Source: a virus
Strand: one strand, 5' to 3'
DNA length: 64,000 nt
IMG/VR virus record: IMGVR_UViG_3300032313_000500
Location: 1 to 64,000 of that record
The notes under the pieces were generated by a model. The model was not told the DNA's origin. It made no database searches and was given only the letters and a program-made list of their open reading frames with translations. A program made the translations under genes and the position numbers. Positions 28,563 through 55,110 of the stretch are shown here, in pieces (the stretch's first letter is position 1; the number at the start of each line of letters is the position of its first letter).

Positions 28563-28623
28563 GGTTTTCTTTCTGTAGGGCAATTGCACATTAGGCATGT
28601 TTTATGCGCTACGGTGTGAGCAT

Positions 28624-31017: not shown

Positions 31018-34000
31018 ATGAGTCAGCAAGACATTCAATTTAAAGCCATTCCTGGCCAGTTCAACATTGACGAGGCTCAGGGCGTAGTTGAGTGTTTCGT
31101 CGCAGGTATCGGCAACAAAGATTCGGTTGGCGACGTTTTGATTACTGGGGCATTTACTAAAAGCCTTACCCGCCGCAAGCCTCGTGTTGTTTGGGGTCAC
31201 AACTGGAACGACCCAATCGGCAAAGTCCTTGAAATATATGAAGTTGCACCTGGGGATAGAAGACTCCCATCCAAGATGTTAAATGCTGGAATTGGCGGCC
31301 TTTACGCAAGAGTTCAGTTCAACCTCAACTCAGAAAAAGGTCGTGAGGCATTCGCCAACGTCGCTTTCTTCGGTCAAGAGCAAGAATGGTCAATCGGTTA
31401 TAAAACGCTTGATTCAATCTTTGACCCGAACATCCAAGCAAACATTCTAAAAGAAGTAGAACTTTACGAAGTATCGCCAGTACTACATGGTGCTAACCAA
31501 CTAACTGGAACAATTTCTGTAAAGTCTGACGAAACAGCCGAGAAGCACATGCCGGGAATGATGATGCCCCACCACGAAGGAATGGGTGCTGGTCCTAAAA
31601 TTGTTGTCGTAAGACAAAGCAACGATGACGACGACGATAAGCCGATTTTCTCAGAAGGTCTCGCTCAGGCACTTGGTGACAACGAAAAAGAAAGATTGAC
31701 ACGCGAACTGCAAGCCAGAAGCGGTTCATCAATTCAATTGGTTTCCGCTACAGAGAGTACGGCAAAGTTTAGAAGAATGACTTCTGATGGTCGTTCCGTA
31801 ATGTACAGAATTGGATACCACACTCCAGACAATTACGTTACCTTCATGTTTGGAAAGCCGGAACTGGCGGAAAGCCAACAACCGGGCGGTTCACGCACTG
31901 TTGTTCCGTCACAGATGCCTTCAATGCCAATGCAGGTTAAGCCACGAGTAACAACTGACTCAACAAACTATGTTGTTAGCCCTGAATACGTAATGCCAAA
32001 AGGCGAAGATTACGAAAAGTCAGCCTTTGACGAAGAACTAGAAAATCTTGCTCAAATTCTTGATGAGACATTTGATGTAAAAGTTGGAAGAACTCTTAGT
32101 TCTCGCAACATGTCAAAACTAAAAACTGTCCTAGAGACACTTCAGGATATTGTTTCATCAGCAGAAAAAGATGTTGAGTCAAAAAGCGATTACATCATTC
32201 CTGTCAAACTGGAAAATGCGTTTGAGACCAAGCAGTTACTTGACCCAATTTTTGATTACCACAGAGTTGAATCTCATGTGACAGAAGACGGAATAGTCAT
32301 CACAACAGGGGTAACTCAAGAATTTATAGAGGCCATTGGCGTGGCCGAAAAAGCCTTGGGGCGAACGCTGAGCGGTGGCCTGGGAAAATTAGGCCGCGCC
32401 GGTAGGGGCGCGGTAAACTTTGACCCAAAAGCATGGGACGGTGACGGAGACGGAATCGTACAAGAAGGAACACCGTACTCACGTCCAGCAATACCTGGAG
32501 TAAATGACCGCGCATCTGGCGGAAGAGTTGATGCCACTGCTGCAACCCGTGCATGGCAAAATCAACGCAGAGCCGGAATGGCATCACGTACTGGCCGTAT
32601 GGATGCAGATGACAACTTTGACGAATACGACGAAGCAATGGGTCCACCAATGCGTCGTGCAGGTAGAGGAATGGCTGAAGACCCAACTGGCGACGCTGCT
32701 TCAGAAAACCTTGATAGGGACAGAAACGCTGGCGCTGTAAGAAGAGGATTGAGTTCAAGCACACCAAAGCCTCGTAAAAAGTCAACCGATTACAAAAAAG
32801 ACAAAAACTACACAGACCTTGACGATGACGACAAGAAAATTGTAGACGTAATTCAAGAAGCAATAGAAAACGGCGAGATAACGGGTGAAAGTTATTGGTC
32901 GGATTGGGTGAGTAATACTCTTGGTGACTGGAGTCTGCAAGAACAGTACGAGGCTATTTATGGCAGGTCTGCTACTAGTGAAGACTTTCAAGAATCTGCC
33001 GACCAAAGCGGCAGTCGGTACAGAGATGGTGAAGGAAGATATGATGACGACATTGAGGAAGAATTCTATTCCGAATCAATAGCGGATGCATCCCCTCGTG
33101 AGAAACTAATAGGGCTAGTTGGAGAATACATGCCTGAGGGTTCAAAGTATGGCGACAAAAAGCACATTGCTGCACTTCGTCAATCTTTTTCTTCTGGAAG
33201 AAGCGGACTCAGTTCAAGCACTTCAGGTTCTAGAGGAAAACCGGAGCCGTTAAAGCGCGAGGGCGAATTTCACGGTGGGAATATCTACGACGAATTCAAT
33301 GGTCAATATGTTGAAGGTGAAGTAGTTGCTTTATCCGACCTTTATGGCGACGACAGACCAGGGTATGGAATAGTTGGTAGATACGACAGCGACGGAAGTG
33401 GCACTGTTGATTATTTCTACGGCGGAACGGACGACGAAGAATTTGAAACCATTGAGGATGCTATAGCGTTCTTGGAAAATGTTGAAAACGAAGCAGAAAA
33501 CGACAGATTCTATAACGAACCTGAATTTAGAAGCGTAGACCGTAAGCGTTCTGCTGGTAGACCTGGCGAAAGACCACTTGCAGGGTTTTCATCAAGCACC
33601 GCAGAGGTTGTGTCAAAAGATGACTTGCCAAAAGAACTTGTAAACGACGTAGCAAATGCTGCAGTTCGCGCCGTGGGCCGTAGTGGTGACGAGACACGAC
33701 TTATTGATGGGGCTAAAGAAGTATTGGCAAACCTTACTAGCGAAAAATTAAAAGACAGCGTCGGTAAGTCTATATCCAATGCAAGAAAACGATTAGCAGA
33801 AATGCTTTCTGACGAAAAAGTCATTGAAGAATTTCAGTCAAGAAAAGCAATTGAAGATTTTATGGACGAAGTGGGCTATGCCGTTCAAGAGATGCTTGAT
33901 TTACATGTTGGTTCTGTTAAAAAAAATGGAACCTCTGTTGAAAAAGAAGAAATTGAAGAAATTGTAGATAATGCAAAATCTAAATTTGATAATGATTTTA

Positions 34001-37000
34001 ATGAATTAGTTAAAGCGTCTAAAGAGTTTTGGAACAAGAGACGTAAGCCCGGCAGATTAGATGGCACTCCAGAAGAAGCAAAAAAAGAAGCAGCAATAGA
34101 TAGAAAAAATTTGATGGAAACCCTCAGGGAGGGTGGAGAGCCAGAAGACCTTGAATCAACGCTTGGTTCAATTTTTAAAATGTTTGATAATGATTCTGAA
34201 AAAATAATTTCCGGAACAATTTCTGTTGAAGATTTAAACTATCTAACAGAAAAAGCACTTGACCAAATTATTGAAAACGACCCATCAATTGACCCAGAAG
34301 AATTAGTAAACGAATTTGCTGAGGCTCTCCGTGAGGGAGCATCCAAGGATGGTGCAAACCCACTGATTGTTGCTTTAGCAAAAGAATTTGGCGATGAAAA
34401 GATTACTGGTGGCGACCTAATTGACTACCTGAATGACACTCGTCAAAATTCTGTTTACAGACCCGACAGAGGCAAGATTGAAAAAGAAAAACTTCGTGGC
34501 TTTGCTTCCAGGGTAGGCAATAACGACCCTGCCAACACTGGAGACGGAGAACGTGGTCTTGGTTCTTCATCCGATAAGCGTGAAATGGACATGACGCTTG
34601 CTGAATATGCAGAACTAGATAAAGTTCTTAAGAAATACATGGATGACAGCCAAGTAGACGGCATCGGTGCTGACGAAGACATGCAAGTAATTCAGGATAT
34701 TCTTGACAAACTTGATGAGAGTTCAGCCGCAAACGACTCAATTCCTCTTACGGACAAAGAAATTGACGACTACATGGACACTCTCACAAGAATGAGAGAC
34801 AACGGTCCAGTTGAAGATTTAGCAGATAAAGAATCAATAGACAAACTGATTGACTCCTTAAAGAAAACAAAAGAATCAACAGACGGAACCTACGAATCAG
34901 ATGCTCTTCAGCAGGCCGGAACAAGGCTCACTCCTCCTCCTGGCGGTCGTGGAAGAACCACAAAAGGCACTCGCCCATTCAAGAGTTCCAACGGAACAAT
35001 AAATCCACACAAAAAACTTGATTTTGAATTAGAAGATTCTGAAATTGGCGAACTTCGTGATGAACTTGATGGTTTTATGAAGATGACCAACAACCCTGGT
35101 CCACTTAGGGCTGTTGCTGAGAAACTAGAAAAAGCCACAAATGGCAAGTTTTCACTTGAAAAAGAAGAATACGAAGAAGTTGTAAAAGAAATAGAAAAAC
35201 TACGGACAGACAAAAAGATAGTTACATCAGACGTAATCGGACTTCTTGAGCAAGCAGCAGAATCCAAAAAAGGAAAGTACTCAAGCATTGAAGTCAATGG
35301 CGGACGAGGTTTCTCATCATCTACTGGTGGTGGCAAGAACAATGGAGCACCATCCGACATTCCCGAGACAATGCAAAAGCAATTACTCATGTGGGCTAGA
35401 CAGCAAAGAGGTCTTAGGCTCGCTCAAGAATCAGTTGAGAAGTTTGACAGGGACAAAGGAACTCTTCCAGCATCACATTGGAGAAGACTGCGCACCTTGT
35501 ATGAGAACATGGGACCAGGCTCAGCCAGTGGCGCTGCTCGCAGTGGTGGACGCAGAGGCATCTTCGGCCGTGGAAAAGATACTTCTCCGACTACGCAGGT
35601 TGGTCGTGGACCTTCCGCTGAAAGCAAACCACTACCCCAAGGCCTGCTTGATAACACAATGTCAAAAAATCCAATTGTCACAGATGGATTTACGGACATG
35701 AGGTCTGGAAGCATGGGTGGCTCACAGGGCGGAGGCGTATTCAAAGACCCAAAGACTGGTCAGGAATATTACATCAAGCCAGCAAAGACGCAGACTCATG
35801 CAGAAAACGAATCGCTAATGTCTCGTCTCTATGAAAGAATAGGTATTCCTGTTGCGAAAGTAAAAGTAGGAACCTACAAAGGTCGTCCAAAAATTGTTAG
35901 CATAATGATTCCAGGAGCAGAAAAAGTCAACCACGAATCCGAGATGAAAAAACCGGCGTGGAAGAAGGCGGTTCAAGATACTTTTGTGGCTAATGCGTGG
36001 CTTGCAAACTGGGACGCTGTTTCAAACGGCGGAAATACCATTAGGGGCGGAGACGGCAATGCGTACGTCGTTGATGTTGGCGGTGCTGGTCTTTTCCGAG
36101 CAAGAGGAGAAGCAAAGGGCTCGGCGTTTGGTCCTATCGTCGGGGAAATGGAATCCTTGAGAGACCCCAAACAGGACGGCGCTCAACGCGGTGTTGCATA
36201 CTGGGGAGATATTCCACCAGCAGAAATTGCTCGTCAGGTAAAAGTAATTGGAGCAATATCCGATTCTGAAATCAAACAAATGGTTGATGCGTTAATTTCT
36301 GACAAGGGTGAAGCAAAGAAACTTTCTGACACTCTTATTGCACGACGTGACTATCTCGTTCAAAACTGGAGCACTGGCAAAAACAGTGGCTCCGGCAGAA
36401 GAGGTCGTACTGGCTTTTCATCTAGAACAGACCCTAGCGACCTTTCCGACTACAGACCACCCCGGCGCACGCCTGGCGGAGTACCGGCAATGAGACCTGC
36501 CGATTTTGAAGTGCGAGCCGATAGCGAAGGCGTCACTGGTGTTGGCAAGGGTGGGGCAATGGGAACAAAGCCTGACAAAAAATTCTCTGGTGACTCTTTT
36601 GACCAAGTTAAGCCAGACAAGTGGGATGAACTCACAATTGACGAAAAATGGGAATGGATGCTTGGCGAAGGAAACCCTGAAAAGGGCGGAACCATGTCTC
36701 CTGCTGCGTACGAGGGCGCTATGAAGAAACTTGGCGACGAAGAAGCCAGAGAAGAAGCAAAGCGGATGTCTCCAGAAGAACGGAGAAAAGCCCGTACCGA
36801 GTCAAGAGAGAGCCAAAGAGCGCAACTTTCCGACAACGAAAAAGAAAGAATCTCTGCTGAAAGAGCAAAGCGTCAAGCAGATGCAGAAAGCCAATCCAAG
36901 CGAGTCAAGGAAGAGGCAACTGCAGAAAAAGCACAAGCCAAGAGACAGGCGCTTCTTGATGGTTTCAACGAATGGATTGATGACTCAGTCCGTCAACTTT

Positions 37001-37890
37001 CAGAAATGGAATATGACGGAACCGACATCAACCCTGATGCCGACGATATCTGGGACACCGTTTCCACAATCCTTGGCGTCAATGACATTACACCAAAATC
37101 CCTAAACGAAGCAATTGAGGAACTTTCATCATACGTTGACGTTAATTCACCTGGGGAAAATGCTTATGAAAAGAAGAGCATTGCCCGTGCCAACGCATTA
37201 TTGAAGAAACTTTCAAAGATGAAATCAGAGTATTCGGAAGACAAATGGTTCAACGGCAGAGAAGGCAGAAGGTCTGGATTTGACTCCAGAACTGGTGGCA
37301 GGCCACGTCCTGGAACCCCAGAAATGCCTCAATCAAACGCCAAGCGCGAGGGAGACATAAAAAGACTTTCCACACTGATTGAGCAGGTTGTCGCAGAACT
37401 TGAAGCAAAACGTCAAAACCCTTCACCCAAAAAGGGTCGCATGGGCTTCTCTTCGTCTACCGGAAAGACCATGATTACCGACGAAGCGACATTCTTTAAG
37501 GACATTGAGAATTCTCTTGCAAAAGAAATTAGAGCCGCACAGAAGGCCAAGAACACCAAGGCAATTACAGGGCTAACTAAACTTCAAGAAATAATCAAGA
37601 GAAACGAAGCATCCAAGACTGGCGACAGAAGAACAAATGTCGGAAGCATATACATGACGATGGATGAAGTTGACCTAATTCTTGACGGTCTTCAGTTTGC
37701 TCTTGACCAACAGGTGGACGCCGGTGGAGATAAGAGAATTGGCTGGTACTCAAAGTTGATTGAAAAGATTGCAGCAGCAGCCATGTCTACATTTATTGAT
37801 AAAAGCACAACAGAGATTGGTTCAACCAGAAGAACAGTCACCAACAAAGATGGCGTAAAGAAAAAAATCAATATTGTCCCAGAAGCATAA
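31018..37890 (+). CDS. Prohead protease (HK97/S78 type) fused to ~2100 aa of cargo including a HipA/PI3-PI4-kinase-like domain
   Basis: N-terminal ~170 aa: GNKDSVGD, VWGHNW (His), EWSIGY (Ser), LYEVSPV..AN. At ~35700-36380: GGSQGGG, YYIK, AENE, ANWD..GN, VDVGG. Confidence 0.85.
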   Translation: MSQQDIQFKAIPGQFNIDEAQGVVECFVAGIGNKDSVGDVLITGAFTKSLTRRKPRVVWGHNWNDPIGKVLEIYEVAPGDRRLPSKMLNAGIGGLYARVQFNLNSEKGREAFANVAFFGQEQEWSIGYKTLDSIFDPNIQANILKEVELYEVSPVLHGANQLTGTISVKSDETAEKHMPGMMMPHHEGMGAGPKIVVVRQSNDDDDDKPIFSEGLAQALGDNEKERLTRELQARSGSSIQLVSATESTAKFRRMTSDGRSVMYRIGYHTPDNYVTFMFGKPELAESQQPGGSRTVVPSQMPSMPMQVKPRVTTDSTNYVVSPEYVMPKGEDYEKSAFDEELENLAQILDETFDVKVGRTLSSRNMSKLKTVLETLQDIVSSAEKDVESKSDYIIPVKLENAFETKQLLDPIFDYHRVESHVTEDGIVITTGVTQEFIEAIGVAEKALGRTLSGGLGKLGRAGRGAVNFDPKAWDGDGDGIVQEGTPYSRPAIPGVNDRASGGRVDATAATRAWQNQRRAGMASRTGRMDADDNFDEYDEAMGPPMRRAGRGMAEDPTGDAASENLDRDRNAGAVRRGLSSSTPKPRKKSTDYKKDKNYTDLDDDDKKIVDVIQEAIENGEITGESYWSDWVSNTLGDWSLQEQYEAIYGRSATSEDFQESADQSGSRYRDGEGRYDDDIEEEFYSESIADASPREKLIGLVGEYMPEGSKYGDKKHIAALRQSFSSGRSGLSSSTSGSRGKPEPLKREGEFHGGNIYDEFNGQYVEGEVVALSDLYGDDRPGYGIVGRYDSDGSGTVDYFYGGTDDEEFETIEDAIAFLENVENEAENDRFYNEPEFRSVDRKRSAGRPGERPLAGFSSSTAEVVSKDDLPKELVNDVANAAVRAVGRSGDETRLIDGAKEVLANLTSEKLKDSVGKSISNARKRLAEMLSDEKVIEEFQSRKAIEDFMDEVGYAVQEMLDLHVGSVKKNGTSVEKEEIEEIVDNAKSKFDNDFNELVKASKEFWNKRRKPGRLDGTPEEAKKEAAIDRKNLMETLREGGEPEDLESTLGSIFKMFDNDSEKIISGTISVEDLNYLTEKALDQIIENDPSIDPEELVNEFAEALREGASKDGANPLIVALAKEFGDEKITGGDLIDYLNDTRQNSVYRPDRGKIEKEKLRGFASRVGNNDPANTGDGERGLGSSSDKREMDMTLAEYAELDKVLKKYMDDSQVDGIGADEDMQVIQDILDKLDESSAANDSIPLTDKEIDDYMDTLTRMRDNGPVEDLADKESIDKLIDSLKKTKESTDGTYESDALQQAGTRLTPPPGGRGRTTKGTRPFKSSNGTINPHKKLDFELEDSEIGELRDELDGFMKMTNNPGPLRAVAEKLEKATNGKFSLEKEEYEEVVKEIEKLRTDKKIVTSDVIGLLEQAAESKKGKYSSIEVNGGRGFSSSTGGGKNNGAPSDIPETMQKQLLMWARQQRGLRLAQESVEKFDRDKGTLPASHWRRLRTLYENMGPGSASGAARSGGRRGIFGRGKDTSPTTQVGRGPSAESKPLPQGLLDNTMSKNPIVTDGFTDMRSGSMGGSQGGGVFKDPKTGQEYYIKPAKTQTHAENESLMSRLYERIGIPVAKVKVGTYKGRPKIVSIMIPGAEKVNHESEMKKPAWKKAVQDTFVANAWLANWDAVSNGGNTIRGGDGNAYVVDVGGAGLFRARGEAKGSAFGPIVGEMESLRDPKQDGAQRGVAYWGDIPPAEIARQVKVIGAISDSEIKQMVDALISDKGEAKKLSDTLIARRDYLVQNWSTGKNSGSGRRGRTGFSSRTDPSDLSDYRPPRRTPGGVPAMRPADFEVRADSEGVTGVGKGGAMGTKPDKKFSGDSFDQVKPDKWDELTIDEKWEWMLGEGNPEKGGTMSPAAYEGAMKKLGDEEAREEAKRMSPEERRKARTESRESQRAQLSDNEKERISAERAKRQADAESQSKRVKEEATAEKAQAKRQALLDGFNEWIDDSVRQLSEMEYDGTDINPDADDIWDTVSTILGVNDITPKSLNEAIEELSSYVDVNSPGENAYEKKSIARANALLKKLSKMKSEYSEDKWFNGREGRRSGFDSRTGGRPRPGTPEMPQSNAKREGDIKRLSTLIEQVVAELEAKRQNPSPKKGRMGFSSSTGKTMITDEATFFKDIENSLAKEIRAAQKAKNTKAITGLTKLQEIIKRNEASKTGDRRTNVGSIYMTMDEVDLILDGLQFALDQQVDAGGDKRIGWYSKLIEKIAAAAMSTFIDKSTTEIGSTRRTVTNKDGVKKKINIVPEA

Positions 37891-37999
37891 ATAGTGTGCG
37901 TTCTCGCCCAGAGGGGCGTGCTACGTTATACTTTTATAAACTATTCATAATGTGATATTGACACTCGTGTCTTTACTCGCTAAAAAACAGGAGTTACCA

Positions 38000-39376
38000 A
38001 TGAGCGAAAAAGTTGAAGTCAGTGTTGATGCGGACGGCAATGTTCTTAAGTGCGCTAAGGGCGCAAATGCTGCCGATTGCGGGTTTACACCAGGGGCAAA
38101 AGTTTGTGGCAAGTGCGGAGCAATGCCTATTCAGATGAAGATGGTCCCAGTCACTGATGATGACTATGAAGTCAAGGGTGGCGATAACTGGGACGACAGC
38201 GCCATGTTTAACGCTATGAAAAAGCGTCAAAAGGGCATGGGTATGGGTATGCCTGACGAAGAAGACGAAGAAGAAATGCCAATGAAGGGTATGGGCTACG
38301 AAGAAGAAGACGACGAAGAAGACGACTTAGTTCCCATGAAAACTTCAAAGAAGAAGATGTCTCTTGAAATTGAAGAAGACGACGAAGAAGAAGACGACGA
38401 AGACGAGTTGTCCATGGACGGAGAAGTTGACCTAGAGGCAGCAAGAAAGAAGCGCCTTGCCAGCATGGGTGAAAAAGTTGCAGAACTCGGCAGAAATGCA
38501 TACATGTGTGCTGTTGAAAGAAAAGTTTACCCAGGTGGTTCAAGCGTTTGTGACGACTGCCCTGGTGGGTGTTTGCCAGAGCGCGGAATGCCAGGACTTC
38601 TTTCAGTTGAAGGAATTGCTGAACAAATGTTTCAGGGCAAGGTTCTTGACTCTGGATACTCTTCAGATGCAGACATGTTCGTAGTTGACATTCAATCAAA
38701 GAGCGGCCGTGCCGTTGAAGTATTTATTGACGGTACAACTGCAGAAGTTCTTGGTTTCCACAAACTTGACGACAACGCTTTTGAGCAAAAGTCAGCACTT
38801 GATTCAATGATGGTTATTGACTTCCATGAAGCAGCAGAAATTGCTGTTAAGTCTATTCAGGGTGACGTTGTTGCAGTTGAGCCAGACATTTTTGAAGGCT
38901 TTGATGCATACGCAGTTGAGATTGAAGGTCTTGATGGAAAGTCATACGATGTGTTTGTCTCTCTTGACGGTGAAGTTCTTGGATACGATAAGTACGAGCC
39001 AGAAGAAGCAGAAGCAATTGAAGCAGAAGCCGCAGAAATTGCATTAAAGCGTGCATTCAATGAAGACATGCGTACACAAATGGCGCAAGAAGGAAAAGCA
39101 CTTCCAGACGGCTCTTTCCCAATCTCCAACGTAGAAGACCTAAAGAACGCAATCAGCGCTTATGGTCGTGCAGGCGATAAAGAGGCAGCAAAAAAGCACA
39201 TCATGAAGCAAGCAAAGGCTCTCGGTCAGGAAAAACTAATTCCTGCTAACTGGGTAACTGGTGGAGCAAAAGTTGTTGAAGAGAAGTCCGGAGAAGTTGA
39301 CTCTGACCTTATGGCATCACTCGTTGAGTTTGAACTCCTTGAGGCCGAGGTTAAAGACGCAGACCCAACAATCTAG
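38000..39376 (+). CDS. Head-associated protein: two Cys clusters, acidic tract, two PepSY-like repeats and a C-terminal ALPDGSFPI domain
   Basis: AGGAG RBS before ATG 38000. CAKG..CGKCG and CDDCPGGC clusters. EAAEIAVKSIQGDVVAVE..YAVEI..YDVFVSLDGEVL is the PepSY pattern. Confidence 0.65.
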   Translation: MSEKVEVSVDADGNVLKCAKGANAADCGFTPGAKVCGKCGAMPIQMKMVPVTDDDYEVKGGDNWDDSAMFNAMKKRQKGMGMGMPDEEDEEEMPMKGMGYEEEDDEEDDLVPMKTSKKKMSLEIEEDDEEEDDEDELSMDGEVDLEAARKKRLASMGEKVAELGRNAYMCAVERKVYPGGSSVCDDCPGGCLPERGMPGLLSVEGIAEQMFQGKVLDSGYSSDADMFVVDIQSKSGRAVEVFIDGTTAEVLGFHKLDDNAFEQKSALDSMMVIDFHEAAEIAVKSIQGDVVAVEPDIFEGFDAYAVEIEGLDGKSYDVFVSLDGEVLGYDKYEPEEAEAIEAEAAEIALKRAFNEDMRTQMAQEGKALPDGSFPISNVEDLKNAISAYGRAGDKEAAKKHIMKQAKALGQEKLIPANWVTGGAKVVEEKSGEVDSDLMASLVEFELLEAEVKDADPTI

Positions 39377-39392
39377 AGAAAGCGTGGCCCGT

Positions 39393-45077: not shown

Positions 45078-45484
45078 AAGCAGTATTAGTGGCAACTGTC
45101 CATGGCGACAAAAAACTATTCTATGTGGTTGACGCAAAAGACGAAAAAACCGACGGCGTACTTGATGATGGCGTTAAACCAAAAGTTGTAAATTTCTGGG
45201 CAACCGCTATGAATGCAATAAATCTAGTACCATTACGTTCAACGAAGTTTCATGATTTTTTATGGGATGGAGCATCTTGGGACAACAGCGACGAATGGGA
45301 AAGGGTTTTTATAAAAAAAACTCAAGTGGTTTCCCCAAGAATGTCGTCTGGTGTTGTTTTTTCAACAGATGCAATGAAATCAAAATTAAAAGAAAAATCA
45401 ATCAATTCTCGCGCTACAGAGTTCAAGACATTGATGCAGACGCAAAATATAAATATAGTACGTTCCAGAACGGGTAACCAATGA
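45074..45484 (+). CDS. Small hypothetical protein coupled to the giant cargo gene
   Basis: ATGA overlaps at both ends; 136 aa. Confidence 0.65.
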   Translation: MKAVLVATVHGDKKLFYVVDAKDEKTDGVLDDGVKPKVVNFWATAMNAINLVPLRSTKFHDFLWDGASWDNSDEWERVFIKKTQVVSPRMSSGVVFSTDAMKSKLKEKSINSRATEFKTLMQTQNINIVRSRTGNQ

Positions 45485-46077
45485 ACAATAGAGACATTAA
45501 GGCAGACCCGCTAGGTGGGATAATCCCCCAAGAACTAGTAACTGGAGACATCCTCAAAGGCCGTGGACCAAGAAGAGGAAACCTTGAAAGACTGCTTCGC
45601 TACTGGCGACCAATCATGAAAAAGCCAGGTGGCTTTAGGCGTTGCAAGGTCATTCTTGCTGACCATCCAGAGTTGTACCCACTGAACAATATATGTGCTT
45701 GGTTGCATCATGAAACTACCGGTCTTTGGCCAAACGAAGGTTGTCACCATCCCGGCATGAAAAACTGCCGTAAAAAAATTAAAAAAGGAACGAATGGTTC
45801 TCTTTTCTCTGACTCAGATTTTGATAAAAGGGTAAGAAAACTTGCTGGAAATAGTAAGAAGTCTTTACAGCCGGAAACCGAGCAATACGAAGACTCAGTA
45901 GTGACGAATGCCGACGAAAAACATTCAGTTCTAGTGATGCGTGACTTTTCTGAGATGGAACCAGATTTTTGCAAAACCATGTCTGACGATTCAAATTGGG
46001 AAATAGAGGGCGAAGACGAAATGGGAAACACCAAGTCAGTCCCTTATGATTCTGAACAGGACAACGACGTTGAGTAA
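45481..46077 (+). CDS. Head-associated protein with GNLERLLRYW..PGGFRRC..CAWLHH..GLWP domain
   Basis: I recognise this motif from domains appended to phage head-maturation proteins; recall, not a search. Confidence 0.55.
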   Translation: MNNRDIKADPLGGIIPQELVTGDILKGRGPRRGNLERLLRYWRPIMKKPGGFRRCKVILADHPELYPLNNICAWLHHETTGLWPNEGCHHPGMKNCRKKIKKGTNGSLFSDSDFDKRVRKLAGNSKKSLQPETEQYEDSVVTNADEKHSVLVMRDFSEMEPDFCKTMSDDSNWEIEGEDEMGNTKSVPYDSEQDNDVE

Positions 46078-48067: not shown

Positions 48068-51000
48068 AAAAAGTATCTACCCTATTTGATGCACTGCGTA
48101 ATGAAAAATTTGCTATTGCTATTCAAGATGATTATGGAGTCAAATACTATGGCTCCGAAGGCCAGGGAAAAGAATGGTCCGACTGGGCCAACTCTCTTAG
48201 CACCAAAACTATTGACGCAAACAATATTCCAGCAGGAATCATTCAGGGGCCCTACAAAAACATTAGCGAGCATTCCTTAAAGTCATTGCTGACTGCTTTT
48301 GGAAACAACATTAGCGAAATTGGCAACTCCTATACAGACTCCAAGTCATACTCTTACAAAAGTTCTGTAAAGATGGACAACGGTGCCCGTGTTCCAGCAG
48401 TAATGGATACACCAATTGGTCACTTTACCAAGTCCCAGTATTCAAGCGCTGTGAATTACAAGGGTCTTGCTATTCGCACCCAAATCAAAGAGGGAAGTTT
48501 TCTTTTTGAAGCAAGAGCAAACAATTACGCATTCAACTTTGACAACTGGATGTACAACTCAACCCCGTCAAAAGCCGAAATAAAGTCACTTCGTCACAGA
48601 ATTGACACAAACGTAGGTCGTTCTTCCGAAAGACGTCTGGGCATGAAATTTAAAGCCGCTCTTGTTGAAAGAGATGGACGCCACAGAGTTGGTTACGCGC
48701 AAACACTGGAAACCAAATCACTTGAAGACTCTCTTGAGTTGAAAGGAATTGGTCAAAGAATAGGTGGAGGAGCACGCATCGGCAGAAGAGCGGCTCGCAG
48801 TATGGCCATGTTTGACCCTAAAGCATGGGACGGCGATGGCGATGGCGTAGTGCAGGAAGGTACACCCTTTGAAAGACCTGCAATTCCCGGCATCAACGAC
48901 AGGGCAACTGGCGGTGCTGTTGACGCAGATGCTGCGAAGAAGGCATGGAAAGAATTTCAAAAGAATCCAGGCAGTTCAACGCCTTCTAGAGAGTTGAGTC
49001 CTGCACGCAGAGCCATGCGCGAAGGAAGCCGCTCAGTAGGAAGACAAGTTCTCACTAACCGTAAGCCAGCGGCAGCGGGTCGTAAATTACCTGACTCAAA
49101 ACCAATCAAGAGAAGCGGTCTTGCATCAAGATTGCCTGGCGACAAAAACGAAGCAGGAGTCAACCCACTAGTAGCAAAAGAAGTAGTTCGCAAAATAGAA
49201 GATGTTCTCTATAAACGAGACACATTAGATTCATTCAGTGCTTTCATTGATGGACTTGGTCCAGACGGTGGTCAGGAATTAAGTGCTGAACAAGTTTTTG
49301 ACATAAAAGAAGCAATCCAGTTGTACGACAATGAAGAATACGACATGGACGACCTTTACAGCAGTGTTTCAGCAGCCGTCACCAGAAAGAAGCCCGACGC
49401 TAAACCAAGTCAATCCGGAATGCGTTCACGTGTTGGTAAAGCACAAATGGACAGACAAGTTAATGGTCTCGCATCACGAAGTGGTCGTTCTAAGAAAAAA
49501 TCAAAACTGAAAGCAGTACCAGGACTTGACAAGGTTGACGAACGAGATGGTTCCCTATGGGCGTCTTTGACACCAGAACAGCAAGAAGTTGTAAAGAAAA
49601 ATACTCAAACAGCATATGAAAGACTTCAGACATCCATCAAAAAAGACAAGTATCTCAGCACGTGGTGGGATGAATTTTTACGTCTTCCTCGCAAAAAGGG
49701 AGCAACAGACGCTGACGGTAATGAGTGGTCTGAGCAATCAAGAATTGCTGGAGAGGCATTCACTTCTTTTGAAGTAGCAATAAACAGGTCAATTGACGGC
49801 GCAAATTCAGAAATACAAGCCGACGAGAGAGCGCTTGCAGCAATGAGACCTACAGGGTCTGATGCTGAAATTAAAAAAGCAGAAAACAGAATTGCAAATA
49901 AGAAGAAACAGGTTCAAAGAATTCAAAAAATTCTAGACGACCTTAAAACGTACGACCAAATGGACAAAGCCGATGACTGGTCGCTTCTTGAACACCTTCA
50001 CCCAGAACAAAGAAAGAAATCTTTCGGTACTGGATTGCAAAAAGATGAAATAAATCTGATTGTTAGCCCTTTTGCTGATGGAAAACTTCCAAAGGGAATG
50101 AAAGTTGGAGAACCATCAACAATTTTTGAAGAAATTGGTGGAGTTAAAAGAGCAAAGCCTCGTATTATCGGAGAAAAAGGTGATGCAAAACTTGCAGACT
50201 TTGCAGACAGAATTCTTCGCCCCAACCCAGTAAGGGCGGAAAGAAGAAGACTACGAAAGGCCGGAAAAGGTAAGACGTTCACAGAAGAATCGCCACGCGA
50301 AAAAATCTCAAAAGTTAAAAGAAGAATTTCTAAAGCAAAACGTCAAGTACAAAGCAAGATTCGTGGAAAGCGCAATCCAGAGAATATTGAAAGCGCTTTG
50401 GAAAAAGTCAGGAAACGTAACACTCCACTTATCGGCAGAGACAAAGACGACAATCCGGTTATCTCTCGCGAAACAATTGAGGGTTTTGCAAAACTGCTAA
50501 GAGGATACAAGCCTTCGGAAAAAAGAACCAAAGATGGAGCGACCAAAGGTAAGAACGCCGACTCGTTCCTTGGACAAATCTGGGACTCACAAAACTTCTC
50601 TGCACTTCCTACAGCGATAACTGAAGAAGAGGCCAGGGAACTAATATCTTTAGGATGGACACCAATTCAACGTGGGCATGGAGGAACAACACCCTCCCAG
50701 GCAGCCTCATGGGCGGAAGATTATATTTACGACCCTAGAAGATTTATTACTGGAGAAGGTGGACAAGCAGTAGGCCCTGGAGAATACTGGGCCCACCCTG
50801 AGAGCACCGGATGGGACAGTTGGATTAGAGGTCAATCTTCAAACACTGCAACACTTGCTTTCTTGCCACCTAACTCAAAAGTCCTAACGGAAGCGCAAGC
50901 GTCAAAACTTCAACAGGACGGCAATAGTATTGCAAACGCAATCGGTGGATACATAACTGGTGCTGGTAGTGGTGGAAAAGCGGAAGAACTTGACCCACAA

Positions 51001-51360
51001 GACCTTGTTAGAGAAATCAAACAGCATCTTTCAAGCGTGTTACCAATGGATTCAGGTGTTTGGAATAGCGAAGTAGGAAAAGTATATTCTCAAATATTCA
51101 GCCTCATGGAGGCTGGAAACTCGGCGGAAGGCAAGCAACTCTATGCCGCTCTGCAGTTCATGTTAAAACAAAGAGACTCTCATAAAAACATTTACGCCAT
51201 GATTCTTGGATACGACGGTGTTGATTATGGAAAATCAGACGGAAGATTGCTGATGTTTAACCGCGGTGCGCTATCTGTTGTTGGAGAAGCAGTTGTTCCT
51301 CTTGATAAACTCAAAGCCATAGCAGCGGGCCAACCTTGGCCACCCAGAAAGGACGCATAA
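48064..51360 (+). CDS. Head-cargo protein with DGDGDG module and C-terminal PARP-like ART domain
   Basis: FDPKAWDGDGDGVVQEGTP; QNFSALPTAITEEE..IQRG..GEGGQAVGPGEYWA..LGYDGV resembles MuF-associated ART-like domains. Confidence 0.55.
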   Translation: MKKVSTLFDALRNEKFAIAIQDDYGVKYYGSEGQGKEWSDWANSLSTKTIDANNIPAGIIQGPYKNISEHSLKSLLTAFGNNISEIGNSYTDSKSYSYKSSVKMDNGARVPAVMDTPIGHFTKSQYSSAVNYKGLAIRTQIKEGSFLFEARANNYAFNFDNWMYNSTPSKAEIKSLRHRIDTNVGRSSERRLGMKFKAALVERDGRHRVGYAQTLETKSLEDSLELKGIGQRIGGGARIGRRAARSMAMFDPKAWDGDGDGVVQEGTPFERPAIPGINDRATGGAVDADAAKKAWKEFQKNPGSSTPSRELSPARRAMREGSRSVGRQVLTNRKPAAAGRKLPDSKPIKRSGLASRLPGDKNEAGVNPLVAKEVVRKIEDVLYKRDTLDSFSAFIDGLGPDGGQELSAEQVFDIKEAIQLYDNEEYDMDDLYSSVSAAVTRKKPDAKPSQSGMRSRVGKAQMDRQVNGLASRSGRSKKKSKLKAVPGLDKVDERDGSLWASLTPEQQEVVKKNTQTAYERLQTSIKKDKYLSTWWDEFLRLPRKKGATDADGNEWSEQSRIAGEAFTSFEVAINRSIDGANSEIQADERALAAMRPTGSDAEIKKAENRIANKKKQVQRIQKILDDLKTYDQMDKADDWSLLEHLHPEQRKKSFGTGLQKDEINLIVSPFADGKLPKGMKVGEPSTIFEEIGGVKRAKPRIIGEKGDAKLADFADRILRPNPVRAERRRLRKAGKGKTFTEESPREKISKVKRRISKAKRQVQSKIRGKRNPENIESALEKVRKRNTPLIGRDKDDNPVISRETIEGFAKLLRGYKPSEKRTKDGATKGKNADSFLGQIWDSQNFSALPTAITEEEARELISLGWTPIQRGHGGTTPSQAASWAEDYIYDPRRFITGEGGQAVGPGEYWAHPESTGWDSWIRGQSSNTATLAFLPPNSKVLTEAQASKLQQDGNSIANAIGGYITGAGSGGKAEELDPQDLVREIKQHLSSVLPMDSGVWNSEVGKVYSQIFSLMEAGNSAEGKQLYAALQFMLKQRDSHKNIYAMILGYDGVDYGKSDGRLLMFNRGALSVVGEAVVPLDKLKAIAAGQPWPPRKDA

Positions 51361-51689
51361 TGTCTGAAGACGAATTTGTAGAAAAACACCGTGAGTACTC
51401 CGTGTACGCAGACTGGCCTCCGTTTTCAATATCTAGCAAAAAAAGAAATGACTATCTTGAAGATGTTGTTAAAGAAGACAGACGAATAGTTTCAAAAATT
51501 AACGCCAAAGACGAAGATGCATTTGAAAGAATGTACTCAACCGTAGAGGTTAAGTGGTCTGACGACCTTGAAGAAGCCCGCCTCTACCAAAAGAGGTATG
51601 GCAAAGAAAAGATTGACGCATTTCTCGCTGCTTTAGAACTGGAAGGTCTTGAAGAAGACAGCGACGGCGTTCCATTTGGAATTTTTTAA
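51360..51689 (+). CDS. Small acidic hypothetical protein
   Basis: TAATG coupling at 51358-51362; MSEDEFVEKHREYSVYADWPPF. Confidence 0.65.
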   Translation: MSEDEFVEKHREYSVYADWPPFSISSKKRNDYLEDVVKEDRRIVSKINAKDEDAFERMYSTVEVKWSDDLEEARLYQKRYGKEKIDAFLAALELEGLEEDSDGVPFGIF

Positions 51690-51690
51690 T

Positions 51691-54600
51691 GTGGAAAGCG
51701 AACTCAGAAGTCAAATTGCTGCCGTAAGGCGAGCAGCGGATATTGGATGTTTTGGTGCGCACCAAATTTCAAACGGTGAATGGCTGCCCTGTTCTTCAAC
51801 AAAACAATTTCTGACAATTACTAACGGTTTTGATGTCAAGTCAAGAATTTCACTTGACGACATGGAGAACTGGTCTTCAATCAGAAAATCAAAAGGAAAA
51901 AAGCGAAAGAAGCGTTGGGAAAAACTTCGTGAGCGCAGAATACTTGGAATTGAATCTCTGGAAGGCGGCGGTCTTGTTTCTCCAAGAAACTCAACAAACA
52001 TGATTAATGGTGGCACAAATCCACCAATCACGCATGGTGCTTCAAGTCCTTCGGGTATGTCTACTAAGAGCATTCAGCCCGCATTCATGCCTAGAGACAA
52101 CGACCCTGACGTGTTTGTTGATATTGAATCAGCAAGAAAAAGAGCGCAGCAACTTGGCTGTATCGGTGTAAGCAGAAGAATGTCAAAAGGTGGAAAGGTT
52201 ATATGGATGCCATGTACAAATATCACCGACTACAACAATCTGACCGGAATGACTTCTCTTGGAAGAACAAATCTTCAAAAAAGAAATGAAAAAATAATTA
52301 GAACCGTAATAAAAGAAAATCTTAAAAAGAAAAAAACAACTATTCAAGAAGATATTTACGGCAAGGCTCTCGGTCCAAGAATTAGAGGAATAGCCCGAGC
52401 AGCAGTTTCAAGGTTTGACGCAAATGCTTTTGACGGAGACGAAGACGGCTTAATCCAAGACGGAACCACGTTTGAGAGACCAAGCATTCCAACTCCATCC
52501 ATACCAAAACCCGCAGACAGAGAAGCCACACCAAAAACTGTAGACAGAGAAGTTTCAGCATCAGAAGTTTCTGCAGTACGCAAATTCATGAGCGCCATGA
52601 CTTCTTCGCAAATGGATTCTTTCAGAGGTGAACCAATTGAAGCGTACGACGGAGTTCCTGGGTCAAGGCGTGGAATGGCATCCAGTGGTCCTGGATTCAT
52701 TATCGGTCGCGGTCCAAAACCAGTAAGCGGAAGAAAGACACCAAAGCCTTTATCCATAGCGGAACTGAGAAACCCAGAAGCAAGTCCAACCAACCCATTT
52801 AGAAATCTCGGTGGAAGACTGATGGGCAAATTGATTAGGGGAATGGTCAAGCCTGAACATAGAAACAAACAAGATAGAACGACTTTCCTCATTGGTGGAA
52901 ATACTGGTTCGGGTAAAACAACCGTACTTGACGGACATTTAATACCAAAAGGCCTAGTCCCCTCACACGAGGAAGCCGCGCTCATTGACCCTGACTTCAT
53001 CAAGAAAGGTCTTGTTGGATACAACGACGGGGATGGTGCTGGTCGTGTTCATAGAGAGTCTCAAGCAGCAACTGACAAGACAATTAGGGATGCCGCTTCT
53101 GACCAAATGGACATGGTAATCACAGGTTCTGGTGCGTCAAGACAAATTCAACACATGCGTGAAGCGTCTGAGCGTGGAGAAAAGGTAGTCGGACACTGGG
53201 TGCACGTTCCACAACAGGAAGCATCTAGGAGAATTAAAAAAAGAATGGATGAAACCAATAGGTACATCCCAGACAACACAGCCCATATGGCTCAGAGTAT
53301 TCCTAAAGTTATTTCAACAGGATTTGAAGAAGACTTACTGGATGAGTTCTACCTATGGGACAACGACGTACCCGAAGGTAAAGAGCCAAAACTTATTGCA
53401 AAAAAAGTTCGTGGCAAAAAGTTTGAAATATACGACGCTAAAAAATTTGAAGAATTTGCCGGAAGTAAAAAGTGGGCAGACACCTGGGTTGCAACATCTG
53501 AAGGAAAAGATTCAGACAATGACAGCGCATCTGTACAGATGAGTAAAAATAGAAGCGGAAATCCTGCAAACAGAGGCGGGAGTGGACGTGTCACGCCTCC
53601 CAAAAACCCGCGAACCCCAATACCTAGCACAGGACAAGGCTCTCCCTTGGACCTAACTCCGTACTCACCGCCATCAAGAGAAAATTCTGTAAAAAAAACA
53701 TTAATAGGAAAAATTCAAAAAATTATACCGCGTGTTCAATTTGAGGGAGTACTTAGAATAGCATCGCGTATTCCAAAGGGAATGCCTCTTTATGAAGAAA
53801 CTGACGACAATCAAATTAAAATAAATTTAAAATCTTTGCAAATTAATCTTGACACTCCTCAGGATATTTTGAAAGCAGTTGATACCTACGCTCCACTCAA
53901 AGCAGACAACGAATCAATGGAGGATTTTGCAGCAAGAATTATTCAAACTATTCCGGCTATGAGGTGGGCGGTTGGGTCCAGTGGTCCAGGAGGAGCAAAA
54001 AGACTTGCAGACATATTAACTCAATCTGGATTCAGTAATAATTCTCAAGAAAAAGTAAGAGAAATACTAAAGAAAAATTTAGAAAATCCATCATTTGCTG
54101 AATTAGTAAAAATACACGGAATGCCATTGATTGTAAACGGTGACACATTATTTACAACAAACGAAAAACTAGCAGCAGGAGGGACGGATGCTTTTCATAC
54201 TGCAGGTTATGGGTTTATCCTCATGTCTGATTCTCTTCTACGGGAAGGAAAGTCGTATTCTCTTGGCTGGACCGAGGAAACCCCCCTTTACAATTATGTT
54301 GGAGAAACAATGCGTCACGAGTGGTTTCACTACTTAGATGGAATAATGAACGCAATGGACCCTGTTGCGAGAAACAATAGAATACAAAAGTACATGAAAA
54401 GTGTAAATGATTTTCTTTCAGACCCTCAGGCTCGTTTTGAAAAAGCGCTAGGAACTCCAGAAGAAATGATTAAAGAAGCAGAGTCAATAGCAGTAAGAAG
54501 TATTGCTTTTGCTCAAGGAAAATCAAAACGTGATGCCATAAGGTATTTAAGGAATAGGAAAGACAAAGATTATTTGGCTTTAATGGATTTAGCCATTGGA

Positions 54601-54900
54601 AAAATGATAGACGACGCAGTGGACTCACTGTTTCAAGACAGGGGTGGAGTTTACGATGATGTCGCTAAAAAATATAGTGTTTATTCTCGTCATGGGATGC
54701 ATGAGTTAATTGCTGAAATAGGAAAACTCATAACCTCAACCCCAGAAGAGAGGGGTTTGTCTGCAAGCGACACAAACTACGCCATTGATAGTGAAACCGT
54801 AGATTTCCTCATGGACATGTTTCCTTCAATATCAAGAGGATTATGGGTAAGTATAATAAAGACGTCTTATCCAGGGATTCAAATAAAGGTATTGAGGTAA
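51691..54900 (+). CDS. Head-cargo protein: two Cys-pair repeats, DGDEDG module, zeta-toxin-like P-loop kinase and HExxH metallopeptidase
   Basis: GGNTGSGKTT, LIDPDFIKK, VHRES, HVPQQEASRRIKKR..RYIP; RHEWFHY with a distal HELIAE. GTG start at 51691 chosen. Confidence 0.7.
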   Translation: MESELRSQIAAVRRAADIGCFGAHQISNGEWLPCSSTKQFLTITNGFDVKSRISLDDMENWSSIRKSKGKKRKKRWEKLRERRILGIESLEGGGLVSPRNSTNMINGGTNPPITHGASSPSGMSTKSIQPAFMPRDNDPDVFVDIESARKRAQQLGCIGVSRRMSKGGKVIWMPCTNITDYNNLTGMTSLGRTNLQKRNEKIIRTVIKENLKKKKTTIQEDIYGKALGPRIRGIARAAVSRFDANAFDGDEDGLIQDGTTFERPSIPTPSIPKPADREATPKTVDREVSASEVSAVRKFMSAMTSSQMDSFRGEPIEAYDGVPGSRRGMASSGPGFIIGRGPKPVSGRKTPKPLSIAELRNPEASPTNPFRNLGGRLMGKLIRGMVKPEHRNKQDRTTFLIGGNTGSGKTTVLDGHLIPKGLVPSHEEAALIDPDFIKKGLVGYNDGDGAGRVHRESQAATDKTIRDAASDQMDMVITGSGASRQIQHMREASERGEKVVGHWVHVPQQEASRRIKKRMDETNRYIPDNTAHMAQSIPKVISTGFEEDLLDEFYLWDNDVPEGKEPKLIAKKVRGKKFEIYDAKKFEEFAGSKKWADTWVATSEGKDSDNDSASVQMSKNRSGNPANRGGSGRVTPPKNPRTPIPSTGQGSPLDLTPYSPPSRENSVKKTLIGKIQKIIPRVQFEGVLRIASRIPKGMPLYEETDDNQIKINLKSLQINLDTPQDILKAVDTYAPLKADNESMEDFAARIIQTIPAMRWAVGSSGPGGAKRLADILTQSGFSNNSQEKVREILKKNLENPSFAELVKIHGMPLIVNGDTLFTTNEKLAAGGTDAFHTAGYGFILMSDSLLREGKSYSLGWTEETPLYNYVGETMRHEWFHYLDGIMNAMDPVARNNRIQKYMKSVNDFLSDPQARFEKALGTPEEMIKEAESIAVRSIAFAQGKSKRDAIRYLRNRKDKDYLALMDLAIGKMIDDAVDSLFQDRGGVYDDVAKKYSVYSRHGMHELIAEIGKLITSTPEERGLSASDTNYAIDSETVDFLMDMFPSISRGLWVSIIKTSYPGIQIKVLR

Positions 54901-54903
54901 CAG

Positions 54904-55110
54904 ATGACAACCTACGGACGTAACGCCAGATTTACGGGAATTAAATCAAAAATAGACGAGTTAGACATGTTGATAAACTCGTTTGAGTTTTCCAAGGAGA
55001 CCGACCTGTTGGCTCAACTTAAAAAGTTGCGTGAACAATTACTAGAAACACTTGACAATTTGGAAAAAACTTTAGGAGATAGCCAAAAATCTCCTGAAGG
55101 CGAGAAGTAG
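54904..55110 (+). CDS. Small helical hypothetical protein
   Basis: 68 aa coiled-coil-like ORF directly after the zeta/HExxH gene. Confidence 0.55.
   Translation: MTTYGRNARFTGIKSKIDELDMLINSFEFSKETDLLAQLKKLREQLLETLDNLEKTLGDSQKSPEGEK

Follow-up and report, generated by a model that had tools for sequence, protein, structure and literature searches.

Between the portal gene and the major capsid protein (MCP) gene of an uncultured contractile-tailed phage lies a 24-kb cassette of giant genes, which we read, with moderate confidence, as the genes for the internal head proteins, or ejection proteins, of this myovirus. Its large products would be phage-type polyvalent proteins that are cut and delivered. 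The phage is known from IMG/VR record IMGVR_UViG_3300032313_000500, and the window analysed here comprises the first 64 kb (positions 1 to 64,000) of this 118,470-bp record, for which CheckV gives a completeness of 79%. We infer packaging, cleavage, the identity of the protease, ejection and the targets from the features described below, among them two signals that recur in the cassette products, a conserved stretch called here the entry module and a short linker motif. The cassette genes, gpA to gpJ, and their borders are listed with their positions.

27255-28598, minus strand: terminase large subunit (TerL), by profile match.
28852..30909, plus strand: portal, 685 aa, upstream border of the cassette (PF04860, 8.6e-48; phrog_2662, 9.8e-69).
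31018..37890, plus strand: gpA, 2290 aa, with protease, conserved post-protease region, entry module and variable multi-domain cargo (ORF, domain searches, homologues).
37952..39376, plus strand: gpB, 474 aa, with a Cys-rich N terminus, an acidic tract and a weak PepSY-like match (Pfam, alignment).
39393..45077, plus strand: gpC, about 1894 aa, with its true start at ATG 39393 (ORF map, homologues).
45074..46077, plus strand: gpD, 136 aa, and gpE, 198 aa (Cys/His-rich), two small genes that the clade has retained (tblastn).
46046..48067, plus strand: gpF, 673 aa, a core gene (48 loci at 42-99% identity; alignment A2; AlphaFold2 [AF2]; Foldseek).
48064..51360, plus strand: gpG, 1098 aa, with a conserved N-domain, entry module, two linkers and a conserved C-terminal part (homologues, BLAST).
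51336..51689, plus strand: gpH, 117 aa, a small conserved ORF (24 loci).
51649..54900, plus strand: gpI, 1083 aa, with two DUF3721 motifs, entry module, one linker, a zeta-like kinase and a variable C-terminal domain (Pfam, alignment).
54904..55110, plus strand: gpJ, 68 aa, the tenth ORF, poorly conserved (ORF map, alignment).
55257..56615, plus strand: HK97-fold MCP, 452 aa, downstream border (PF05065, 5.4e-43).

The portal, protease and capsid genes are usually adjacent in HK97-type heads. In this phage the distance between the portal and MCP genes is 24.3 kb, and it is filled by ten plus-strand open reading frames (ORFs) at 31018-55110 that encode about 8,000 aa. The original prediction, made from the letters alone, had described ten co-oriented and mostly coupled ORFs at this place, and the ORF map together with the PF04860 and PF05065 matches at the two borders confirmed it. 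Most of the ORF junctions overlap by 4 to 40 nucleotides (nt) or leave a gap of less than 20 nt, and no excess of promoter-like or terminator-like sites was found inside the cassette. TerL and all the tail genes are divergent from the portal-to-capsid block (27255-28598 on the minus strand versus 28852 on the plus strand). Therefore, the head cassette appears to form a transcription unit of its own.

The first cargo protein is fused to the putative maturation protease, as had been proposed. The N terminus of gpA belongs to the S78 family by both profile searches (Pfam, 44 bits against a cut-off of 21; phrog_80, 1.4e-27), and His61 and Ser125 are retained in at least 95% of 43 aligned sequences. 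The AF2 model of gpA residues 590 to 1789 had a mean predicted local distance difference test (pLDDT) score of 65 and displayed folded domains at about 868-1163, 1187-1300, 1328-1424, 1440-1499 and 1551-1789, with low-confidence segments between them. The last of these domains was compared with known structures. Its alignment with Helicobacter pylori CtkA (3akj) by VIA-align reached a Z score of 15.2 over 212 residues with a root mean square deviation of 3.6, followed by PI4KIIalpha and CotH (13.7), MavQ (13.3) and HipA (12.2), and all of the top Foldseek matches were kinases. The residues K39, E48, E50, N116, D118, N122, N125 and D138 are conserved in alignment A1, and eight homologues show no variation in the Lys, Glu, N.D...N and D.GG motifs. 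According to the model, this domain is an atypical kinase fold of the CtkA/PI4K/HipA type and not a member of the HipA family, since Pfam HipA_C scored 13.4 to 16.8 bits, below its cut-off of 30.5. What had been called an intact HipA/PI3K-like kinase thus keeps its kinase fold and its conserved active-site motifs and loses the HipA assignment. With the S78 protease and the kinase fold, gpA combines at least two unrelated domains in one polypeptide, as polyvalent proteins do. Single-sequence phmmer searches of the Protein Data Bank (PDB) with gpA, gpC and gpI gave nothing useful, and profile searches of the PDB with alignments A1, A2 and A4 gave chance-level matches only.

31024..31545, plus strand: S78 (HK97-type) prohead serine protease, gpA aa 3-176 (Pfam, phrog_80, alignment).
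35668..36384, plus strand: atypical (CtkA/HipA/PI4K-like) kinase domain, gpA aa 1551-1789 (AF2 model, VIA-align, Foldseek, alignment A1).

BLAST searches between the proteins revealed a stretch shared by gpA (445-589), gpG (227-364), gpI (239-349) and gpZ, a further giant encoded outside the window. The core of this entry module is K-[AGS]-[LI]-G, followed by 10 to 30 Arg/Gly-rich residues and then by FD(P)xAxDGDxDGxVQ[ED]GTxFxRPxxP. The whole module is about 55 aa long and starts after 10 to 450 residues of the protein. A second form, K-[AS]-L followed by RCPxG...RFT[DN]...C..FD, is present in gpC and gpF; in the gpC ORF it occupies aa 208-262 and reads FKSLG ... RCPPG ... RFT ... C.FD. A shared peptide on otherwise unrelated head proteins, the arrangement known from T4-like phages, is therefore found here in gpA, gpG, gpI and gpZ, and as the second form in gpC and gpF.

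32332..32505, plus strand: entry module of gpA, aa 439-496, consisting of AEK-ALG, an Arg/Gly-rich stretch and FDPKAWDGDGDGIVQEGTPYSRPAIP (BLAST, HMM, alignment).
48724-48897 (nt), plus strand: entry module of gpG, aa 221-278 (BLAST between cassette proteins).
52345-52512 (nt), plus strand: entry module of gpI, aa 233-288 (BLAST between cassette proteins).
66590-76228: gpZ, 3212 aa, outside the window (BLAST match to the entry module).

With a hidden Markov model (HMM) of the module, 91 copies (59 of them unique) were found in the fetched loci, 90 of the 91 on the head-gene strand. The ORFs that carry it range from about 80 to 3300 aa, most being at least 500 aa long, and the module is situated at about residue 30, 220 or 450. 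K15, D44, D46, D48 and R59 are invariant in an alignment of 39 module sequences. A search of 1.84 billion representative proteins with the module profile gave 953 matches at E<=1e-3 and 221 at E<=1e-10, and tblastn searches of 50,697 isolated or sequenced phage genomes with the entry module, gpC and gpG gave no match. In one relative (L143), the gene is split just upstream of the module into a protease ORF of 491 aa and a giant ORF with the module at its start. The Asp-Gly residues of the module follow the DxDxDG pattern, which we take to be that of a calcium loop. In three proteins of the representative library (P0224, P0218 and P0231), the DxDxDG core occurs 4 to 8 times in tandem, so the calcium-loop part may also occur by itself, as a repeat unconnected with cargo. 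The capsid maturation site of HK97 is Lys|Ser-Leu-Gly, and the K-[AGS]-[LI]-G core of the module recalls that site.

The second signal is the linker motif G-[FLM]-[AS]-S, a Ser-rich motif with basic flanks. It occurs 28 times in the proteome, compared with 4.4+-2.2 times in shuffled sequences, and 239 times in 390 unique large ORFs of the relatives, where 51+-9 were expected. The shared motifs of the original prediction are thus real and far above chance. In the cassette and beyond it, the copies are distributed as follows: gpA, 8; gpZ, 10; gpC, 2; gpG, 2; gpI, 1; the tape measure-like protein, 3 (aa 42, 607 and 618); and two other ORFs, 1 each. The copy in gpC at aa 1165 is typical, and the other pattern match, at aa 314, is without the surroundings usual for a linker. 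Four of the gpA linkers (730, 856, 1161 and 1431) are in the modelled part of the protein, and all four sit in inter-domain segments with pLDDT values below 50.

10811..15487, minus strand: tape measure-like protein, 1558 aa, assigned by size and position and without a PHROG annotation.

The linkers keep their alignment columns across gpA homologues of 35-90% identity, and their form is specific to each genome (permutation p<=5e-5). The motif reads GFAS in 8 copies in one genome (L098), GMAS in 9 copies and GMSS in one copy of another (L103), GLAS in 9 (L109), GLSS in 8 (L128) and GFAS in 10 to 11 (L159). In more distant gpA-type proteins other forms are repeated, namely, RLSS 13 times (0.09 expected), SRS[KR] 7 times and RSRS 8 times, each with fewer than 0.2 expected. 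The form in the tape measure protein tracks that in the cargo: GLAS is found three times in the GLAS genome, GMSS in the GMAS genome, and GFAS twice together with GLAS in the phage studied here. The sites hold their position while their form shifts together genome-wide, and a recognition motif for a co-evolving enzyme would be expected to behave in this way. The codons vary between linker copies and include both TCN and AGY serine codons. Selection therefore acts on the linker peptide, and a DNA-level repeat or recombination site, which was also considered, is ruled out. The herpesvirus assemblins, relatives of the prohead proteases, reportedly cut an Ala|Ser bond, of which the [AS]-S core is reminiscent.

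A conserved frame with variable cargo was found in the relatives of the phage. In IMG/VR, 440 contigs encode a relative of the MCP, with at least 72% identity among the best 80 of the 440, and 201 contigs encode a relative of the portal. The gap between the two genes, calculated from their coordinates, is 21.9 to 28.4 kb in the 11 contigs with both of them. All of the examined loci that were anchored on the portal have a gene for a giant protein, of 2100 to more than 3300 aa, directly after it. The first 500 residues or so of the gpA homologues, which comprise the protease, the post-protease region and the module, are conserved, in about 70 loci and in 294 protein clusters, and the remainder is variable. 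The cargo in these 294 clusters includes Sigma70_r4/helix-turn-helix (HTH) domains, pentapeptide repeats, UvrD/AAA_30/DEAD helicases, ArdC-N together with MPTase-PolyVal, RNase_T, WYL and LexA-type domains, with up to six or more Pfam families in a single polypeptide. Domains are also shuffled between genes, because the kinase domain of gpA is found in other genomes as the C-terminal domain of gpG homologues. The N-terminal 620 aa of gpI are present in 75 loci, in only 5 of which the C-terminal part is found as well. Some relatives lack gpG to gpI, and gpF then directly precedes the capsid gene. The original prediction had expected a recurrent portal-cargo-MCP layout in which leaders and linkers are conserved while cargo domains vary; the gap in the 11 contigs, the 294 clusters and the module HMM bear this out.

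The remaining large proteins provided further candidate enzymes. The Zeta_toxin family model (PF06414) matches gpI with 35.7 bits against a cut-off of 22.3 and the Walker A motif is intact (GGNTGSGKTT), which places aa 408-547 in that family by sequence, as had been claimed; this domain also matches a "minor head protein" (1499 aa) of cyanophage PSS2. Further downstream in gpI, the residues RHEWFHYLD at aa 888-896, with HExxH at 890, are invariant in five homologues of 39-82% identity. The multi-domain character of polyvalent proteins is therefore seen in gpI as well, with its zeta-like kinase and conserved HExxH domain. Another conserved HExxH is at aa 618 of gpC, so that both predicted zincin-like motifs hold at the level of sequence conservation. 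A HERPH sequence at aa 505 of gpC was rejected as a metalloprotease motif, since it is not conserved. gpC has no Pfam, PHROG or phage match, and ESM Atlas scores of about 0.8 for its residues 300-760 were at chance level.

52870-53289 (nt), plus strand: zeta-toxin-like P-loop kinase, gpI aa 408-547 (Pfam).

The N-terminal 195 aa of gpF are predicted to be disordered yet are conserved in sequence, and they carry the motif KAL ... RCPEGYQYGGRFTDSR.STCG. Residues 200-673 of gpF have a kinase-like fold (Foldseek, 2e-5 to CtkA, with further matches to AFK, CotH, HipT and PI3K). The invariant residues D530, D534 and R538 do not match a canonical catalytic loop, so this region may, judging from the model, be a pseudokinase; the atypical kinase fold of the earlier pseudokinase claim was found, and the absence of the canonical residues makes the rest of that claim plausible. 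The two kinase-fold families, of gpA and gpF, aligned weakly with each other in hhalign (11% probability). One part of the original prediction did not stand. Three ADP-ribosyltransferase (ART)-like domains had been proposed, and the Pfam ART-PolyVal model finds nothing in this genome. The candidate in gpA (1575-1784) was rejected, since the phage genes annotated "ADP-ribosyltransferase" encode multi-domain proteins of 774 to 1177 aa and the part shared with gpA is the kinase fold. Only the lead in gpG remains: in the ESM Atlas, residues 830-1098 gave a score of 0.92 with 171 shared features to viral clusters with 22-35% ART-PolyVal members. This language-model lead makes an ART-PolyVal-like domain in gpG possible. 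Pfam searches of 15 homologues of the gpG C terminus gave no matches. Apart from the ART-like domains, everything that was tested on layout, domains and shared motifs agreed with the earlier description.

The other cassette genes are smaller. The motif ALPDGSYPI..DLKNAI.AFGRA...HI..RAKALG at aa 360-440 of gpB recurs with 58% identity at the C terminus of the "capsid maturation protease" of Gordonia phage DalanDe, a protein of 1633 aa in which the protease domain is C-terminal, not N-terminal. The gpB motif may therefore be a scaffold-like or capsid-docking element. Among the best-conserved cassette genes is gpE (45481-46077), which is 51-99% identical in 43 loci and has no family match; gpD was found in 26 loci, both by tblastn. 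Pfam gave no match for gpZ. Two DUF3721 mini-domains, which contain Cys and a WMP motif, precede the module in the N terminus of gpI (51709-51798 and about 52120-52230) and are conserved in 75 loci.

We propose that gpA would enter the prohead through its covalent fusion to the S78 maturation protease and that the shared entry module would recruit gpC, gpF, gpG, gpI and gpZ. The Lys site of the module, the linkers in the disordered inter-domain segments, or both, would then be substrates of a phage-specific protease co-evolving with the sites that it cuts. Cutting would free separate domains (the kinases, the zeta-like kinase, the zincin-like domains and possibly an ART), which would exit the capsid together with the DNA to act upon the new host. 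A bolder version, offered as no firmer than a tentative idea, is that the linker is a private processing code, read by a co-evolving phage enzyme, that marks every protein leaving the virion, and that the module is a tag for capsid loading or ejection that has not been described before and may depend on calcium. The two would then make up a modular load-cut-inject system of a large clade of uncultured actinophages; domain swaps could reprogram it.

Several observations weigh against the proposed route. The phage is uncultured and its cassette is known from genes alone, the closest isolates having 48% MCP identity. Most of the roughly 8,000 aa are without a recognisable enzyme fold: megablast of the cassette gave no match, and most of its sequence was not matched by Pfam, PHROGs, PDB sequence profiles or tblastn against phages. 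The Pfam models that are hallmarks of polyvalent proteins (MPTase-PolyVal, ART-PolyVal, ArdC-N and the LPDs) match none of the proteins of this genome, while ArdC-N and MPTase-PolyVal are carried by homologues that share gpA 1-500 and gpG 830-1098 has its ART-PolyVal lead. In their conservation, gpD, gpE, gpF and the N-terminal portions of gpG and gpI resemble structural or core genes rather than swappable cargo. The putative maturation site of the MCP, [K/Q/Y]-[ST]-[LIV]-G, is only loosely like the K-[AGS]-[LI]-G of the module, and the link between the two is weak because the first position of the MCP site is not conserved. The KALG of gpB is probably not a cleavage site, being part of a conserved helical C-terminal motif common to the DalanDe protease. 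Lastly, the linker motif may be something other than a cut site. It is also carried by the tape measure protein, which is no prohead component, in a form that tracks the cargo, and the prohead protease therefore cannot be assumed to be its reader. The enzyme acting on the linkers may instead be one of the conserved HExxH domains or a host protease, or cleavage may take place after ejection.

Some of these observations would be expected if the large proteins were mainly architectural, an internal core, inner body or ejectosome of the kind formed by T7 gp14-16 or the phiKZ inner body, with the module as an assembly interface. Such proteins would organise the DNA or build a conduit across the envelope and would not be host-directed enzymes. 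The conservation of gpD, gpE, gpF and large parts of gpG and gpI across the clade agrees with this, as do the long helical domains without an enzyme match predicted for much of gpA 868-1500, the absence of canonical kinase catalytic residues from gpF, and the lack of a Pfam or PDB sequence match over most of the length. However, the active-site motifs of the gpA kinase are kept, the P-loop of the zeta-like domain in gpI is intact and HExxH is invariant; the relatives hold helicases, ArdC-N/MPTase domains and sigma-like HTH domains; and shuffled domains with variable C termini are effector-like rather than architecture-like. We therefore regard a mainly architectural role as quite improbable. 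It is still harder to credit that the proteins are not packaged at all but are late cytoplasmic polyproteins, involved in host takeover or assembly and processed by a protease in the cytoplasm like the tape measure. The linker in the tape measure protein, with its cargo-tracking form, does speak for a reader that acts outside the prohead interior or on non-prohead proteins. In HK97-type heads, however, the prohead protease is located inside the prohead, and gpA is fused to it. Moreover, the genes lie strictly between the portal and MCP genes in all the relatives examined, the module is found almost only on the head-gene strand and in the cassette, and enzymes for host takeover, if made late, could do little without being carried to the next cell.

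The linkers could also be flexible spacers for docking or modification, with no protease involved and the proteins acting as intact giants. They might be phosphorylated on the invariant Ser by the kinases of the cassette, or bound by a chaperone that keeps the ejected proteins, including the tape measure, extended through the tail. This would account for a Ser-rich motif with basic flanks, for the two or three kinase-type domains in the same cassette and for the presence of the motif in the tape measure protein. There is precedent for uncut giants: the N4 virion RNA polymerase is packaged unprocessed and virions of phage Burro show a band of about 250 kDa (PMC5512222, PMC7302621). The genome-specific form of the linkers, at two positions over 8 to 13 sites, instead fits an enzyme that co-evolves with its sites, and the likeness of the [AS]-S core to the assemblin Ala|Ser bond points the same way; both are also compatible with a modification enzyme. 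Overall, we consider it unlikely that the linkers are spacers only. The reading we retain is that of an internal head or ejection protein set, in which polyvalent proteins would be cut and delivered.

Outside the cassette, the tail sheath, tape measure-like and fibre genes lie on the minus strand and identify the phage as a myovirus. The nearest cultured relatives by MCP are Brevibacterium phage Cantare and the Gordonia Bendigovirus phages, at about 48% identity. Two WhiB-family genes are present outside the window, at 79794-80006 (minus strand, L169) and 111658-111840 (minus strand, L168), with 52.7 and 49.6 bits, both above the cut-off. Both these genes and the cultured phages closest by MCP suggest an actinobacterial host. 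The single related metagenome-assembled phage in GenBank, DSL-LC01, came from a lake (PMC10611076). This origin and the G+C content of the record (44%) suggest a low-GC freshwater lineage, and we regard a low-GC freshwater actinobacterium as the probable host. A phosphoadenosine phosphosulfate reductase-like auxiliary gene is found amid the tail genes (21381-22523, minus strand; phrog_2302, 6.8e-74), a ribonucleotide reductase gene after the head genes (59842-61884, minus strand; 2.3e-136), and one tRNA-Ile gene with anticodon TAT at 62273-62345 (plus strand). In the MCP, the alignment has a conserved x-[ST]-[LIV]-G-[DEQ]-x-F at aa 97-103 (55545-55565), where the variable N-terminal part ends. 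It lies about 55 residues upstream of the equivalent of the HK97 cut, and if it were the cleavage site the N-arm would be unusually long. The HK97-equivalent position itself, 10 residues before GSIQ, was considered and is probably not the maturation site, since it is without a conserved Lys and is deleted in many relatives.

If the proposed delivery is real, about one-fifth of the phage genome would encode proteins that are carried into the next host. The two sequence signals would then allow this "ejectome" to be read from metagenomes across the clade, with its 440 capsid relatives and 953 module-bearing clusters, whose phages probably infect abundant freshwater actinobacteria. The genome-specific form of the linkers would provide a natural dataset on the co-evolution of a protease and its sites, and HK97-type capsids might be loaded with foreign proteins by means of the entry module, a candidate portable tag. 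The list of cargo domains (kinases, sigma-like HTH domains, DNA-mimic pentapeptide repeats, helicases and ArdC-like anti-restriction domains) points to immediate-early counter-defence and host takeover.

The principle of such a system is already published. Iyer et al. (2017; PMC5512222) describe giant multi-domain polyvalent proteins in a virion-gene context in portal-terminase phages and predict that they are packaged in the capsid, possibly processed, and delivered with the DNA. The cassette studied here is flanked by TerL, portal, MCP and tail sheath genes and so belongs to a phage with this type of packaging. The domains listed there include kinases, zeta-toxin-like kinase, zincin peptidases, ARTs, helicases and ArdC-N, and the relatives of gpA share the hallmark pair of ArdC-N and MPTase-PolyVal. 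A subset of the polyvalent proteins is fused to assemblin-like prohead peptidases, which the paper places "always" at the C terminus, whereas the peptidase of gpA is N-terminal; neither the entry module nor a genome-specific linker code was found in the sections consulted (PMC5512222). The original prediction had interpreted the cassette as a distinct, MuF-independent system. The layout, the protease fusion and the independence from MuF stand, the last because Phage_Mu_F (PF04233) has no match at E<=10 in the 118-kb record (79% complete). The distinctness does not stand, as polyvalent proteins predicted to be packaged in the capsid, some of them protease-fused, were described before (PMC5512222).

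Other delivery systems resemble the cassette in part. In MuF-toxin fusions and the portal-fused effectors of phages including actinophages, a head protein carries variable C-terminal toxins such as a VIP2 ART or a zeta-like kinase (PMC7302621, PMC5512222); the carrier here is a protease or the entry module. T4 loads Alt, an ADP-ribosyltransferase, and the internal proteins IPI-III through a short targeting peptide that is trimmed by the gp21 protease, and injects them (PMC9026906, PMC5512222). The T4 tag is an N-terminal peptide of 10 aa cut after Glu, whereas the candidate tag here is about 55 aa long, has a DxDxDG loop and follows 10 to 450 residues of protein, on multi-domain giants known from genes alone. 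In SPN3US, phiKZ and 201phi2-1, the prohead protease cuts a large mass of head-internal proteins at a short consensus that is specific to the phage, and these proteins are ejected into the cell (PMC7411985, PMC10052503, PMC5694885). Their protease is T4 gp21-like, with sites ending in Glu, and the proteins come mostly from separate genes with no known protease fusion. The Dar proteins of P1 are a functional precedent (PMC9024508), and gp27 of Microbacterium phage Burro, a protein of 4,400 aa, is virion-associated and probably processed (PMC7302621). Among the actinophages, the Gordonia Bendigovirus phages DalanDe and GMA6, Cantare, DSL-LC01 and Gordonia phage Sixama have a giant-ORF insert of 7 to 18 kb between portal and MCP, and an ORF of 3289 aa in DSL-LC01 carries the same kinase domain as gpA. 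In contrast to the phage studied here, these five and Burro have neither the entry module nor G-[FLM]-[AS]-S linkers, and MCP identity is only about 48%. Beside the polyvalent proteins, T4 Alt with the internal proteins, and the SPN3US ejection proteins, the gain of the present cassette is in its signals and its scale. What appears to be new is the specific entry module, the N-terminal arrangement of the protease, the genome-specific linker code common to cargo and tape measure, and the scale.

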